In this document: one piece after another, positions 2,187-6,145 of the stretch | Numbering within the stretch: position 1 is the first letter of the stretch | Layout: every line of letters begins with the position of its first letter | Origin: a virus | DNA length: 12,720 nt | Strand: one strand, 5' to 3' | IMG/VR virus record: IMGVR_UViG_3300024432_001830 | Translations under genes and position numbers: made by a program | Notes under the pieces: generated by a model | Databases searched by the model: none | The model's input: only the letters and a program-made list of their open reading frames with translations | Told to the model about the DNA's origin: nothing

Positions 2187-4058
2187 TTAAATTCCTAAAA
2201 GTTTCTTTCGATGAACAGCGTCTTTTCCCATAATATTTTCTATAAGATATTCACACTGTTCTGTTAATATTACTTTATATAAAATTCTAGTATCTGGATT
2301 CATAGCAAAAAGTTTCATATCACTAGCTTCACATTCTCCCCATCCTTTCATACGAGTTATGTGTACGTTTGCACTTTTTGGCAATTGACTTTTTATATTC
2401 TCTAAAGTATTACCATAATACTTCCTATCTTTATAAGAAGTAATGAATAAAGGAGCATTTACTACATACACCATATCCGCTTCAATTAACTCTTTCATAT
2501 AGTTAATAACTAAGCTAAGAGCCAGACATCGAATATGGTAACCGTCATCATCTTCATCTGGTATAAAAATTATTTTTCCTACACGAGCTTTAGTTGGGTC
2601 GCATAAGGTTAAATCTTTGACGTTTTGATTAGAACCTATAGATGTGAATATGTTTCGTACATCTTCGTTTTTGAATAATTCAACGGAAGGATTTTTTGAG
2701 GCATTTGTAAATTTACCTTTTAAAGATAGAATTTCTTGGTATCTAGGATCTCTGGCGTTTTTAAGTGTACCTTGAGCACTTTTCCCTTCACAAATAAATA
2801 GCTCTCTCTCTTCTGGTTTACATCTTGGTGCACCAAGCAAAACTGTAGGAAGCACATGTTTAGATGTTTTTTTAACAAAAGTTATATCTTTTATCGCTGC
2901 ACGTTTCTCTCTGAATTTATCCCGCGCTTGTTTTATTTTAACAGCTTTTGTTAAAATAGTATCAGTCAAACTTTTGTTTTTCTGAAAAAAGTCTAAAAGC
3001 AACGGTAATAGAGTATTCTTAACGTAATTCTCAGCGTCATCGCTAGAAAGTTTCTCTTTAGTCTGATTAGTATAGGTAGGATCTTTCATTCTATGATGGA
3101 TAATACCGACTAACCCTAATCTTAAATCGTCTTTGCTGTATTTGTCGTTACTGAAAGGAGCAACTGCTTCATTTAAAGCCTTTTTAAAACCAGTAAAATG
3201 ACTACCTTGTTCTGGAGTATGACAGCAATTAACATAGCTGTGTATTTTTTCCTCGTCAGCATTTGTCCATTGTAATGAAACATCTAAAAAATTATCTGTA
3301 AATTCGAATCTTTTACTTACTGTAGATAATTTATTATTTTCTACTGTTTCAATAACCCATTGGGATAAGCCATTTTTTGACTTATATATTGTTTCTTTAC
3401 CCTCAACTACAAGCACAAATTCCAAATTAGGACAAAGATATTTAATATTAGATAACCATTCTTTGAGTCTTCTTATAGGTATTCTATAGTTTTTAACAAA
3501 AATTTCTGGATCAGGTATAAATTTTACAACAGTTCCACTTTTCCAATTAATAGGAGGTTTTACATTTTCAGTAACTTCAGTTTGAGGAATACCTTGTTTA
3601 AAACTTTGATAGTACCATGTTTTATTTCCTTCTTGGCTTACATCAAAATTTTTAGAACGATATGTCCATACTTCAAAATTTGAAGACAAAGCATTTGTGG
3701 CACTGATACCAACACCATGCGTACCAGAAGTAATACTTTTACCAGAAAATTTTCCTCCAGCATGTATTCTTGTTAATACTGTTGTAAGAGTGCTAAATCC
3801 TGTTTTAGGATGGTTTTCTACGGGTATTCCTCTGCCCCTATCCGCTACCAATACCGTCATGTTTTCTTTATCTATTTCTATGTAAACTTTAGTATTTTCA
3901 TCTACTAGAAATTCATCAATGCAGTTATCGACCGCTTCTTTAATTATCTGGAAAAGAGCAGTTTTATTTATATCTCCTACGTATACTCCAGGTTTTTTTT
4001 TAATACCCTCAAGACCCTCAAAAACATCAATATCAGCAGCTGTGTAGCTATTTTTCAT
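2187..4058 (-). CDS. DNA topoisomerase II ATPase+Toprim subunit of phage T4 gp39 type (GyrB/ParE-like; GHKL ATPase, transducer, Toprim), 623 aa. It is a single chain, i.e. not split into gp39 and gp60 as in T4.
   Basis: The translation carries the GHKL signature: IIKEAVDNCIDEF (N-box DNxxDE), ADRGRGIP (G1 box DNGRGIP-like), HAGGKFSG and TSGTHGVGISATNALS (G2/G3). It carries the Toprim signature too: FICEGKSAQGT (EGDSA-like) and IPDEDDDGYHI (DxD). The overall pattern resembles T4 gp39 (KAGGNF, GGMNGVGSS) more than canonical bacterial GyrB. The ATG at 4058 follows AGGGGATAAT. Confidence 0.85.
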   Translation of the reverse strand: MKNSYTAADIDVFEGLEGIKKKPGVYVGDINKTALFQIIKEAVDNCIDEFLVDENTKVYIEIDKENMTVLVADRGRGIPVENHPKTGFSTLTTVLTRIHAGGKFSGKSITSGTHGVGISATNALSSNFEVWTYRSKNFDVSQEGNKTWYYQSFKQGIPQTEVTENVKPPINWKSGTVVKFIPDPEIFVKNYRIPIRRLKEWLSNIKYLCPNLEFVLVVEGKETIYKSKNGLSQWVIETVENNKLSTVSKRFEFTDNFLDVSLQWTNADEEKIHSYVNCCHTPEQGSHFTGFKKALNEAVAPFSNDKYSKDDLRLGLVGIIHHRMKDPTYTNQTKEKLSSDDAENYVKNTLLPLLLDFFQKNKSLTDTILTKAVKIKQARDKFREKRAAIKDITFVKKTSKHVLPTVLLGAPRCKPEERELFICEGKSAQGTLKNARDPRYQEILSLKGKFTNASKNPSVELFKNEDVRNIFTSIGSNQNVKDLTLCDPTKARVGKIIFIPDEDDDGYHIRCLALSLVINYMKELIEADMVYVVNAPLFITSYKDRKYYGNTLENIKSQLPKSANVHITRMKGWGECEASDMKLFAMNPDTRILYKVILTEQCEYLIENIMGKDAVHRKKLLGI

Positions 4059-4118: not shown

Positions 4119-4817
4119 CTACAGATCACGAGAAGCAGCTGTAGCCAATTCCATTAACAAAATACTTAATTCACTAAAAGCTTGAGCTAAACTGTCTATT
4201 GTTTGTGCGGCCTTTTTCTGTAACAAGCTGCTCTTACAATCAGCACATTTTTTATCACAAGCACAATCGTCTTCATCAAGCTTATCTTCTCCTTCTTCCA
4301 ATTCATCTTTAGGATCTAATTGCTCAGAATTCTCTTCCAATTCATCTTTAGGATCTAATTGCTCAGAATTCTCTTCCAATTCATCTTCAGGATCATCTTC
4401 ATCTTTAGGATCTAATTGCTCAGAATTCTCTTCATCTTCTTCTAATTCTTCTGTTTTTTCAGAAACATCTAATTCTTCAGACTTTTCAGTAGGTTCTTCT
4501 AATTCTTTTAGTTCATCCTCTGCTTCAGACTCTTCTAATTCTTCTACTTTTAGTTCTGATGAGAAAGAGGACTCTTCTAATTCTTCTTCAGACTCTTCTA
4601 ATTCTTCTTCAGACTCTTCTAATTCTTCAGTTTCTTCTAATTCTTCAGTTTCTTCTAATTCTTCAGTTTCTTCCAAATCCTCAACTTCTTCTAAAAACTC
4701 TTCATCTGCTTCAATATCCTCTTCCAAAGGATCTTCTATTTCGTCTAATTCCTCCTCTTCTACATCATTCCAATCTAATTCTTGATCTTCTTGTTTTACT
4801 TTTTTATTTTTACCCAT
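4119..4817 (-). CDS. Extremely acidic tandem-repeat protein of 232 aa, roughly half Glu/Asp. The repeats are (ETEELE)x3, (ESEEELE)x2 and (LEENSEQLDPKDE)x3. They are followed by a Cys knuckle (DDCACDKKCADC) and a C-terminal amphipathic/hydrophobic tail (AAQTIDSLAQAFSELSILLMELATAASRDL).
   Basis: The ORF-track entry has an AAGGAG upstream of the ATG at 4817, although the spacing is long (about 13 nt). The terminator hairpin follows immediately. The tandem repeats are visible at DNA level and stay in frame. Confidence 0.7.
   Translation of the reverse strand: MGKNKKVKQEDQELDWNDVEEEELDEIEDPLEEDIEADEEFLEEVEDLEETEELEETEELEETEELEESEEELEESEEELEESSFSSELKVEELEESEAEDELKELEEPTEKSEELDVSEKTEELEEDEENSEQLDPKDEDDPEDELEENSEQLDPKDELEENSEQLDPKDELEEGEDKLDEDDCACDKKCADCKSSLLQKKAAQTIDSLAQAFSELSILLMELATAASRDL
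4296..4430. repeat. Three tandem copies of a 39-nt unit (ttccaattcatctttaggatctaattgctcagaattctc), lying in frame inside the acidic-protein gene. The third copy carries an 18-nt insertion.
   Basis: The copies start at 4296, 4335 and 4374, giving a period of 39 nt = 13 codons (LEENSEQLDPKDE). Confidence 0.9.
4570..4683. repeat. Tandem array of 21-nt units (gactcttctaattcttcttca) and 18-nt units (gtttcttctaattcttca), about six units in total, lying in frame inside the acidic-protein gene.
   Basis: The repeats are visible directly and encode the (ESEEELE)/(ETEELE) repeats. Confidence 0.85.
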
Positions 4818-4849
4818 ACTTTATTTTTTTCTCCTTTAACCTTTACTAA

Positions 4850-6145
4850 CAAATATATCAAATAATTTAGCAAAATCATTAAAAAAACACAATGATAACT
4901 TAAGTTTAACACTACATGGTTAGAAATTCCTTTCTTTTATGGACTTTCCCAATGGATTAACCACCAACCCTCTATCAGGTACCGACTTTTTTAAAAAGCT
5001 ATCCCCAATTACTTTTCTTAGTACCCCTAATGCTCCATTAATATCAGCATTAAGTAATATTCCTGTAGAGCTTTTAAATAATCCTCTCTTTACTCTTGTA
5101 CCTAAGTATTTTTCATGATGTTTCATTTCTTCAAAAGCTAAGTGATCACATTTAGATGTATAACTTTCTTCTGTAGTAACAACTTTTATCCCTACTTCTT
5201 CAGCTTTGTAAATTATTTGTTGTATCAATTTATTAAAAGGAATATTTACGAATTTCTGATTATTTCTCTTACCTAAATGTACTTCCTGTTTCCATCCTTC
5301 ATTCTTACCAATAACTATATTTTTAATATTTTTTTCTAAACAATAATTTACAACGAATCTTGAAGTATGATGAAGATAATTGTAAACTCTATTATTCCTT
5401 TTGAAAACTAGCTTCTTTATTCTATTAGAAGTTCCAATGTTTCCTACATAACTCATAAACTTAGATAACATTTTGTTGAAATATTGATTAATAGACTTTA
5501 ATAATTTACCTTTAATAAGAACAGATACTATTTCTGACTTATTTGAAACACAAGTTGCAAGATTATTAATTCCAAGATCAATACCTAAGTATAAATTTTC
5601 ATTTAAATCACATATTTTTTTCTCCTTTTCGTATACTACCTCAATTACATAGCAGGTAGCTTGAGGTATAATTCTTATAAGTTTTATCTCTTTGAAAACA
5701 ATTTTAGATTTTAAAGGCTTCATGCCACTTTTTTCTGGAAAAAATATGTATTCATTTTTAAGTCGTATTTGTTGATTAGTAAATATTACAATGTTTTTAT
5801 CCTTTTTATAACCTGGAATCTTAGGGGTAGCTTTAAATTTACTAGAATCTTTTTTATGGCTTTTAATAGCTCTGAAATAAGATAACCAATTTTTATCAAG
5901 TAATTTAAATACTTGTTGTGCTGTTTGAGCTGGTAATACTTGATAGCACTTTGTTGCTTTAAAAAAATCATTTATTTCATAATAATCCAGATACATACCT
6001 GTTTCAAAAAAGCATTGTCTAATGAAATAATTAGCCCTGTTATAGAGATTCTTAGATAGCAAACTTATCTCATCTAGGATTTTAGATTTAAATATTATGT
6101 GTCTTTCTACTCTTTTCATATTTCTTTCTCAATTCTATATTTACA
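4850..6145 (-). mobile_element. Approximate extent of an IS1341-like (IS200/IS605-family, tnpB-only) element. Its ends cannot be identified from a single copy.
   Basis: The placement is inferred from the tnpB CDS plus the expectation that the left end (LE) and right end (RE) flank it. Only 21 nt separate the tnpB ATG from the stop of the neighbouring 155-aa ORF, so the LE must be very short or overlap that ORF. Confidence 0.3.
4920..6119 (-). CDS. tnpB: TnpB (OrfB) of the IS200/IS605 family, 399 aa. It is an RNA-guided RuvC-like nuclease / IS1341-type transposase accessory protein, and no TnpA gene is present in the window.
   Basis: The catalytic motifs are present: RuvC-I LGIDLGINNLATCV, RuvC-II NIVIGKNEGW and RuvC-III NADINGALGVLRK. 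Between RuvC-II and RuvC-III is a degenerate zinc-finger region with C-x-H...HH in place of CxxC...CxxC. The length and overall architecture are typical of TnpB. Confidence 0.85.
   Translation of the reverse strand: MKRVERHIIFKSKILDEISLLSKNLYNRANYFIRQCFFETGMYLDYYEINDFFKATKCYQVLPAQTAQQVFKLLDKNWLSYFRAIKSHKKDSSKFKATPKIPGYKKDKNIVIFTNQQIRLKNEYIFFPEKSGMKPLKSKIVFKEIKLIRIIPQATCYVIEVVYEKEKKICDLNENLYLGIDLGINNLATCVSNKSEIVSVLIKGKLLKSINQYFNKMLSKFMSYVGNIGTSNRIKKLVFKRNNRVYNYLHHTSRFVVNYCLEKNIKNIVIGKNEGWKQEVHLGKRNNQKFVNIPFNKLIQQIIYKAEEVGIKVVTTEESYTSKCDHLAFEEMKHHEKYLGTRVKRGLFKSSTGILLNADINGALGVLRKVIGDSFLKKSVPDRGLVVNPLGKSIKERNF

Follow-up and report, generated by a model that had tools for sequence, protein, structure and literature searches.

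A transposase-less TnpB gene of the IS607 lineage and its right-end RNA in a phage gene cluster

Introduction

When a gene for a TnpB nuclease stands alone in a phage gene cluster, with no transposase beside it, the question is how it arrived there and what keeps it. Such a gene lies on the minus strand of a viral DNA stretch of 12,720 nucleotides (IMG/VR record IMGVR_UViG_3300024432_001830), which we refer to in its entirety as the window. TnpB biology is well established in other settings: the transcript is processed, and the resulting RNA directs cleavage of DNA flanked by a target-adjacent motif (TAM) (PMC10711439, PMC13565253). An initial annotation, made from the window sequence alone, described the gene as a stand-alone, IS1341-like TnpB with a likely omega-RNA at its 3' end and proposed that it might be a domesticated nuclease rather than a hopping insertion sequence (IS).

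In this study, we compared the window element with its closest paralogues (P0002-P0005) and 80 IMG/VR loci; labels beginning with L denote IMG/VR or related contigs. Judged by its homologues, the element is a genuine TnpB with a genuine omega-RNA-type element, fairly ordinary within a known family and involving no new principle. It is probably a selfish TnpB/omega-RNA unit of the IS607 TnpB lineage that lacks TnpA, has long been resident in its phage, and is kept or spread by cutting alleles that do not carry it.

Results

An IS607-lineage TnpB with a rearranged active site

4920..6119, minus strand: tnpB, 399 aa, TnpB of the IS607 lineage; RuvC residues D181, E318 (alternative Glu) and D359; Gly271 at the canonical Glu position; no zinc finger

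The gene is a single long open reading frame (ORF) running from 6119 to 4920 on the minus strand and encoding 399 aa, and it lies, as first described, between a hypothetical gene and a gene for an acidic protein. The whole element occupies about 1.2 kb (6119 to 4916). Both spacings given at the outset are borne out by the ORF coordinates: tnpB starts 21 nt (6120-6140) past the stop of an upstream ORF of 155 aa (6608-6141), and 102 nt (4818-4919) lie between its end and the start of the acidic-protein gene (232 aa, 4817-4119).

Its product matches the Pfam families OrfB_IS605 (PF01385; E 2.2e-17, 63.8 bits against a cut-off of 30.5) and Cas12f1-like_TNB (PF07282; E 7.8e-10, 39.2 bits against 26.3), the NCBIfam model guided_TnpB (NF040570; 154.5 bits against 100, with residues 14-368 covered) and PHROG 506, "transposase". 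An AlphaFold2 model (predicted local distance difference test score 81.5) has Cas12f, ISDra2 TnpB, ISFba1 TnpB and mimivirus Fanzor2 as its best structural matches.

At least 4332 homologues were retrieved, and the window protein was aligned with 18 of them (52-74% identity). The RuvC Asp-Glu-Asp triad is conserved in the window protein, its Glu being an alternative one. Both Asp residues of the triad as first read from the sequence, D181 (GIDLG) and D359 (NADING), are invariant in 19 homologues, whereas the Glu named with them, E274 (NEGW), is not conserved: it aligns with the canonical RuvC-II Glu of AsCas12f, and the homologues carry K, D, N or S there. G271, N273 and W276 are invariant around this position, G271 standing where the old Glu would be, and E318 (EESYTSK) is invariant as well, at the end of a predicted beta-strand (312-317) that closes at E317/E318. 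An alternative Glu on the next strand, about six residues before the zinc-finger position and accompanied by Gly at the old position, has been documented (PMC10691335, PMC10711439). The predicted active site is this rearranged RuvC-II form, composed of D181, E318 and D359 with Gly at the old Glu position.

The zinc finger had been described as atypical, with one Cys and three His in place of CxxC...CxxC. These residues are indeed present (C324, H326, H334 and H335, in a region that reads SKCDH...KHH...FKSSTG), and CxxC...CxxC is missing; however, the four closest relatives have V or I in place of C324, not all members keep the His residues, and the position of the second CxxC reads FKSSTG. The canonical motif is absent from every aligned member, and no conserved ligand set is seen. 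Because C324 varies and the second half reads FKSSTG, the finger has been lost across the clade and not replaced by a Cys plus three His site. The missing finger is, by this alignment, a clade trait, and it does not exclude membership among TnpBs, since loss of the finger in entire TnpB branches is documented (PMC10691335).

The TnpB of a Helicobacter prophage IS607, whose gene overlaps that of the resolvase, is 46% identical to the window protein and has the same finger-less layout with Gly and the alternative Glu. Given this shared identity and motif layout, the window protein is a normal TnpB of the IS607 lineage. The label IS1341-like consequently holds for the TnpB-only architecture but not for the lineage.

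Two related protein classes were considered and rejected. A TldR, that is, a nuclease-dead TnpB-like repressor, does not agree with the intact state of all three clade catalytic positions, and a Fanzor does not agree with a RuvC-I motif that reads I-D-L-G rather than D-P-G, with the absent zinc finger, or with neighbours that are phage genes.

A conserved RNA at the right end

4916..5022, minus strand: omega/right-end RNA scaffold, 107 nt, sharing with the ORF its final 103 nt, stop codon (4922-4920) included, and ending in CCAT (4919-4916)
4974..5009, minus strand: helix P1 (AUUGGGGAU AGCUUUUU ... AAAAGUCGGUACCUGAU) of the RNAalifold consensus; 10 of 15 pairs change on both sides
4954..4970, minus strand: helix P2 (GGGU[U] ... 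[A]AUCC); 2 of 4 pairs change on both sides
4922..4951, minus strand: two small 3' hairpins, UGGG-AAAG-UCCA (4951-4940) and AGAAA-GGAA-UUUCU (4935-4922, containing the stop codon)

Across about 100 loci, nucleotide conservation runs through the tnpB stop codon and ends abruptly at ...CCAT, beyond which every locus differs. An RNAalifold fold of 12 sequences, consisting of the long hairpin P1 and the short hairpin P2, was used to build a covariance model, R1. This model matches 52 places, 40 of them outside the seed; the window, itself a seed member, scores 99 bits. It also matches the 3' ends of the tnpB genes of Helicobacter IS607 (44.9 bits) and of a Bacteroides phage.

In P1 and P2 together, 93.0% of the cells of 49 distinct sequences hold standard pairs, against 74.0% in shuffled alignments and 29-48% when the partners are slid by 1-3 columns; 12 of the 19 pairs change on both sides, and the covariation score of 0.449 compares with no more than 0.138 in any control, figures that come from an alignment fitted to the model and therefore lean towards structure, a bias shared by the slid controls. 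P1 is paired in 90.9% of cells, the window keeping the outer stem through two G-U pairs, and P2 in 99%, its relatives carrying GGGU/ACCC, GGCU/AGCC, GGUG/CACC and GGGG/CCCC. The two small 3' hairpins were read by eye and stand outside the model and its statistics; the terminal one differs in a compensatory manner between subgroups, being AGAAA[GRAA]UUUCU in one and GAGAG[UUUAA]CUCUC in another.

The same segment also occurs apart from the gene. Searched with a profile of the last 160 nt, the window yields a single copy, and neither the profile nor the covariance model detects a second element copy or a solo right end elsewhere in it. In related phages, the profile finds four ORF-less solo copies (L007 2854-2969 and 3358-3492; L006 7095-7230; L009 1448-1582), which are truncated at differing points on the 5' side and keep an intact 3' part of 115-135 nt through ...CAT. 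As judged from these alignments, the last ~107 nt up to CCAT are a conserved, covarying RNA structure. The covariation and the solo copies agree with the strand first proposed for the omega-RNA and with its overlap with the tnpB 3' end; its extent, put at roughly 5080-4830, is revised to a conserved scaffold at 5022..4916.

Some of these copies have further features. Another copy, L006 30-164, is listed among the ORF-less ones, which comprise the last 115-245 nt of tnpB with intact hairpins, and each ORF-less copy is followed by its own distinct "guide" sequence. Such copies could be decay products, abortive copies or guide-only loci. In P0005 (L014 7142-7281), the ORF ends early, at 374 aa, and the rest of the C-terminal coding sequence (NRGLVVNPLKV) follows in another frame, with the RNA scaffold intact; tnpB may here be frameshifted or decaying and its RNA preserved.

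These data bear on whether the locus is a decaying relic whose protein or RNA no longer works. The absent zinc finger would suit such a relic, as would an altered C-terminal tail, the lack of a third hairpin in the window alone, a thermodynamically weak fold, and an element GC content of 25-27%, the lowest in the window and slightly under that of its surroundings. However, finger loss and the layout of Gly with an alternative Glu are common to thousands of homologues including IS607, the ORF is full-length with every clade-invariant residue, and P1 and P2 are fully pairable in the window. A relic is accordingly very improbable.

The guide segment

4896..4915, minus strand: predicted guide (GTAGTGTTAAACTTAAGTTA), the first ~20 nt after the right end, where all copies diverge

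As the element extends only 4 nt past the stop codon (CCAT, 4919-4916), the guide would correspond to the first ~20 nt of the spacer, a length taken from characterised TnpB systems, in which guides measure ~16-20 nt (PMC10711439, PMC13565253). This prediction, 4915-4896, lies 70-90 nt upstream of the place first suggested, 4820-4850. That earlier position falls in host spacer, as bases 4866-4818 are shared with a related phage that lacks the element. In all DNA searched, the window guide matches only its own locus. When the guides of all subfamily copies were searched, the only strong match beyond own or orthologous loci was that of the L011 guide, which matches a duplicated polymerase-gene segment.

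An empty site and the ends of the element

6120..6125, minus strand: left flank at the expected TAM position (AGAAAT, then ATG), host DNA outside the element

The 155-aa protein upstream of tnpB has only one other cluster among 5.8 billion proteins. Two contigs, L098 and L099, encode a homologue of this upstream gene (73% aa identity), a 114-nt spacer and a homologue of the acidic-protein gene, with no tnpB; removal of 6119-4916 from the window leaves a spacer of 119 nt. Since both flanking genes are kept there without tnpB between them, the element is an insertion, and the empty-site comparison that had been proposed thereby supports insertion within a phage gene cluster. A search of IMG/VR through the topoisomerase gene revealed no closer empty site.

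The ends were placed with the help of other subfamily copies (a slash marks a junction). In copies at different loci, homology begins at the tnpB start codon. For the L009 element, L214 is an empty allele (flanking gene 89% identical); the left junction lies exactly at tnpB codon 1, after TAATACT/TAATATT (here the two variants of a motif that is present in the empty allele as well), and the right flank, GGAGATAGTCC..., follows AAATAT in L214, its first 11 nt matching. Four further loci (L103, L107, L110 and L014) all read AATATT/ATG. From L009/L214 and these four loci, the subfamily arrangement is deduced to be TAM/element/target, with an A/T-rich motif and no target duplication. The paralogue loci thus supplied the right end CCAT and the subfamily motif that a search for other copies had been expected to yield, although the window itself holds no second copy.

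In the window, the right end reads ...AACCAT/GTAG and the left flank ...AGAAAT/ATG. The preferred junction is AAAT/GTAG, a string found also in the empty-site phage L098, which reads GTAAAT/GTAG, and the reconstructed empty junction is ...GAGAAAGAAAT/GTAGTGTTAAAC.... In an alternative, the left end would lie at 6140, immediately past the stop codon of the upstream gene, and TGTAA/TGTAG would be a decayed duplication (the slash here separating the two copies); the window right flank matches the L098 stop-codon region at 12 of 13 positions in this case. The two models score equally (91.5 for the alternative, 90.5 for the preferred junction), and the alternative is ranked lower by analogy with L009/L214 only. 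A flanking direct repeat in the window is not significant (z 2.0), inspection by eye gave no convincing terminal inverted repeats, and no left-end hairpin was identified, the left end coinciding with the start codon.

Several features of subfamily ends were noted in passing. The first ~60 nt of tnpB (6060-6119 in the window, minus strand) are near-identical, third codon positions included, in L006, L009, L011 and L014, paralogues that are only ~70-85% identical overall; this stretch contains AATATT, the motif flanking the left end, and may hold a DNA or RNA signal overlapping the ORF start. On either side of the L009 element lies a copy of the final 104 nt of the upstream PD-(D/E)xK-like gene (3460-3563 and 4798-4901); the two are ~80% identical, and both stay in frame. 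The left and right junctions correspond to a pair of AATAT(T) sites that the empty allele (L214 1940-2058) carries 104 nt apart. This pattern, which leaves both overlapping neighbour genes intact, is consistent with recombination between element copies that different alleles carried at the two sites. Diverged duplications of adjacent gene segments border the element in other contigs as well. In L011 (1406-1535 versus 2264-2400), the right end is followed by 130 nt from a UDG/PolA-exo gene, and another element, with an internal deletion, lies in between. A flank repeat of 73 nt is found in L043 (z 13.8), and L020 carries one of 24 nt, a duplicate of the beginning of the downstream gene.

Relatives and mobility

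The closest paralogues, P0002-P0005, are 68-74% identical to the window element, and each lies in a different gene neighbourhood of a phage-like contig. Paralogues at other loci are only 68-85% identical, with no pair at different loci above 85%, and the window element is the outlier of the set (68-74%). There is accordingly no sign of recent hopping among copies at different loci. A divergence of 15-32% between such copies fits rare moves and long vertical inheritance. No relative of the window subfamily above 50% identity was found in 185,579 reference genomes.

The absence of tnpA stated at the outset is confirmed by a scan of every other ORF of the window, none of which encodes TnpA or another transposase, and tnpA is likewise absent from the genes called on related contigs totalling ~115 kb. 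Neither the window ORFs nor these contigs showed a resolvase or recombinase domain. Identical copies accompanied by a tnpA, the mark of an ordinary active IS, were not found: no copy at another locus exceeds 85% identity, and none of these sequences holds a tnpA. Lacking both TnpA and a left end of its own, the element would be unable to transpose unaided. These two features, together with the lack of close copies, the divergence of the window element and a GC content slightly under that of its surroundings, are the grounds for regarding it as a long-resident selfish unit.

The main alternative with regard to mobility is an ordinary non-autonomous IS, moved by a transposase supplied in trans by phage or host, with TnpB acting only in a "restorative" role after excision. 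Insertion just 3' of a short A/T-rich motif without target duplication is an IS605-like signature of transposase-directed insertion, and relatives in gut phages are clearly mobile, with near-identical copies at many sites, inverted repeats, 7-8-bp duplications and an empty site in 14 contigs. On the other hand, TnpA is missing from the window and from the ~115 kb of related contigs, the subfamily has no left-end sequence outside the ORF and no copies at different loci that are more than 85% identical, and identity to the nearest relatives in the reference genomes does not exceed 50%, which gives no indication of a host source. We regard this alternative as unlikely.

The gut-phage relatives (50-54% identity; L031, L040, L044, L060, L062/L065/L068, L075 and L090/L094, all IMG/VR contigs) sit on short elements that have terminal inverted repeats (GGCACTTA...TAAGTGCCA or GGTAACTATATAG...TATAATTACCA) and 7-8-bp target duplications, with no transposase inside. 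In 14 contigs (L200-L213), an exact match to the predicted empty site, GCAGCATA[TAAAATG]ATAACGAG, is present. The ends of these elements differ from those expected for IS605 or IS607, and, as read from their sequences, they imply a transposase-like insertion mechanism elsewhere in the family. Members of the clade occur outside phages, too: metagenome-assembled genomes of Heimdallarchaeota carry many TnpB copies per genome (36-42% identity to the window protein; L134, L140-L199), and filamentous cyanobacteria (Coleofasciculus) carry several.

The relatives speak as well to domestication, in which the TnpB/RNA pair would benefit the phage, e.g., by keeping out competitor phages or by cleaving host DNA under the direction of a fixed guide. 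In its favour, neither the ORF nor the catalytic residues have decayed in an element that has long been resident and is 26-32% diverged from all paralogues; it is compact, co-oriented and intergenic, and lies upstream of the L098-shared segment that precedes the downstream start codon; and related phages hold solo scaffold copies from which additional guides could come. Against this, a related phage lacks the element at the same site, the paralogues lie at unrelated loci, the predicted guide is adjacent spacer with no other match in the DNA searched, and paralogue P0005 is disrupted at its C-terminus. We therefore consider domestication distinctly improbable, and the initial proposal of a domesticated rather than hopping nuclease is not supported: presence and absence among related phages, paralogues elsewhere and ORF-less copies point to a selfish element.

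Comparison with known systems

Among relatives linked to a TnpA, the closest is Helicobacter pylori IS607. Its TnpB is 46% identical to the window protein over the full length, has Gly at the canonical Glu position (IVIGKN-GWKQ), EE-[YF]TSK and NADINGA, and lacks CxxC...CxxC, and its 3' end is matched by R1 (44.9 bits). Unlike IS607, the window element has no serine-recombinase TnpA and no left end outside the ORF; its flanks are A/T-rich (AGAAAT/...CCAT/G) and not the GG dinucleotide of IS607 (PMC13565253), and its host replicon is a large phage of virulent type. The window element therefore shows the TnpB lineage of the IS607 family, but neither its adjacent serine recombinase nor its GG ends and target.

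With the IS1341 group and ISDra2, the window element shares a TnpB-only architecture (IS1341), an RNA scaffold over the tnpB 3' end and a guide from the right flank, and its subfamily shares the order TAM/left end...right end/target without target duplication. The predicted structure has the ISDra2-type fold (8h1j, 8exa). Unlike ISDra2 TnpB, to which it is 15-17% identical, the window protein has its catalytic Glu on the next strand and has lost the zinc finger, and no subterminal hairpin ends were identified.

Fanzor2 and the "pro-Fanzor" IS607 TnpBs resemble the window protein in having the alternative RuvC-II Glu just upstream of the zinc-finger position, in descent from the IS607 lineage and in their presence in virus genomes (PMC10711439, PMC11832414). 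The window protein differs in its RuvC-I motif (D-L-G, not D-P-G) and in belonging to a prokaryotic phage, and the published search pattern for these proteins requires CxxC...CxxC, which the window protein lacks. Another comparison is offered by omega-RNAs derived from RAGATH-18, as in ISFba1, where a structured RNA guides an IS607-family TnpB (Ren 2024, as cited in PMC13565253); ISFba1 TnpB (8iaz) is a fold match of the window protein. Unlike that group, the window RNA has no Rfam match, and the TAMs quoted for the group in that source are G-rich (AGGAG/GAGGG, the slash separating two motifs).

Finally, the homing endonuclease genes of T4-like phages (Seg, Mob) resemble the window element in being small, co-oriented nuclease genes between conserved genes, present or absent among relatives, and the window paralogues carry duplicated pieces of neighbouring genes. 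Unlike Seg and Mob, target recognition by the window element would depend on an RNA guide and a TAM, not on protein, and homing by it is known only as an inference.

Neighbouring genes

By their family matches, the neighbouring genes are those of a large phage. They include a topoisomerase II large subunit (PHROG 543, E 5e-128), the anaerobic ribonucleotide reductase NrdD, a protein resembling the Major Vault Protein (MVP) and zinc ribbons, besides many further small ORFs without a family match, and all lie on the same strand. Megablast of the window against 50,697 phage records gave no match. Promoter-like sites between 4600 and 6400 occur at the background rate only, and no terminator follows tnpB.

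Besides tandem repeats rich in Glu and Asp (EELEET..., EENSEQLDPKD...), of which it consists almost entirely, the 232-aa protein downstream of tnpB has a Cys-rich motif and a helical tail that is conserved. In the empty-site phage, the homologue (L098 1862-2362) carries different repeats (EEVPEE), from which we conclude that the repeat array evolves fast. At 10005-12470 on the minus strand, an 821-aa protein matches the MVP shoulder domain (PF11978, E 5.5e-22) and, weakly, an MVP repeat; it has no PHROG match and is unusual for a phage gene cluster.

Discussion

The preferred reading of the locus, a resident TnpB/omega-RNA unit that acts against alleles lacking it, would operate as follows. 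The tnpB transcript would be processed to an omega-RNA comprising the scaffold (5022-4916) and a guide from the adjoining ~20 nt of flank (4915-~4896). The complex of TnpB and RNA would cut DNA having the flank sequence next to an A/T-rich TAM, i.e., the insert-free version of this site, carried by a sister genome or by one that co-infects. Repair by recombination, drawing on the occupied copy, would then retain or spread the element (homing), which would thus persist by vertical inheritance and probably also by homing between related phages. For the window element, we infer RNA processing, guided cleavage and homing by analogy with characterised TnpBs.

In addition to the bias of the model-fitted alignment, several observations weigh against this reading. 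The window element lacks a longer third hairpin that its relatives have, owing to a deletion that also reshapes the C-terminus. Folded as single sequences, the 3' regions of the window element (199 nt and 107 nt) are no better than shuffles (z +0.28 and -0.91), and the same is true of the 102-nt spacer; as single-sequence folds match shuffles in such AT-rich DNA, thermodynamics alone is uninformative. Rfam gave no match in the whole window (E<=1), and for 4780-5200 (E<=10) chance-level matches only (SNORD20, E 9; SAM-SAH, E 4). A covariance-model search, which had been suggested as a check, therefore succeeded with the model built here, which matches the window and the 40 non-seed loci, but not with any Rfam family. 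With a fold no more stable than shuffles and no Rfam family, the case for the RNA is a comparative one. With regard to the site, the flanks of the window and L098 are too diverged to place the junction to the base or to read a guide-target match, and the window left flank, AGAAAT, differs from the AATATT of its relatives. Lastly, the papers searched contained no demonstration of TnpB homing between phages. Phage TnpBs figure there as annotations or as unanswered questions, and "non-restorative homing" into phages that co-infect is a theoretical category.

A broader proposal would extend homing to the whole group: TnpA-less TnpB/omega-RNA units of this clade in large phages would be RNA-guided, free-standing homing endonucleases, copied into co-infecting relatives, and the ORF-less scaffolds would provide extra guides in trans. 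We put this forward tentatively, with the balance of probability leaning against it. If it were true, the duplicated, diverged gene fragments (L009, L011, L043 and L020) and the 5'-truncated copies would be scars of recombination-based spread.

The locus offers a clean anatomy for a TnpB without a transposase, consisting of gene, RNA scaffold, guide position and empty-site comparison. It belongs to a classic IS607 TnpB clade that is finger-less and rearranged at RuvC-II, yet widely conserved, and is thus relevant to the mining of compact nucleases. Its interest lies mainly in being a clean test case for RNA-guided homing in phages. If such units do home between co-infecting phages, they would parallel, with an RNA guide, the protein homing endonucleases by which T4-like genomes are shaped.

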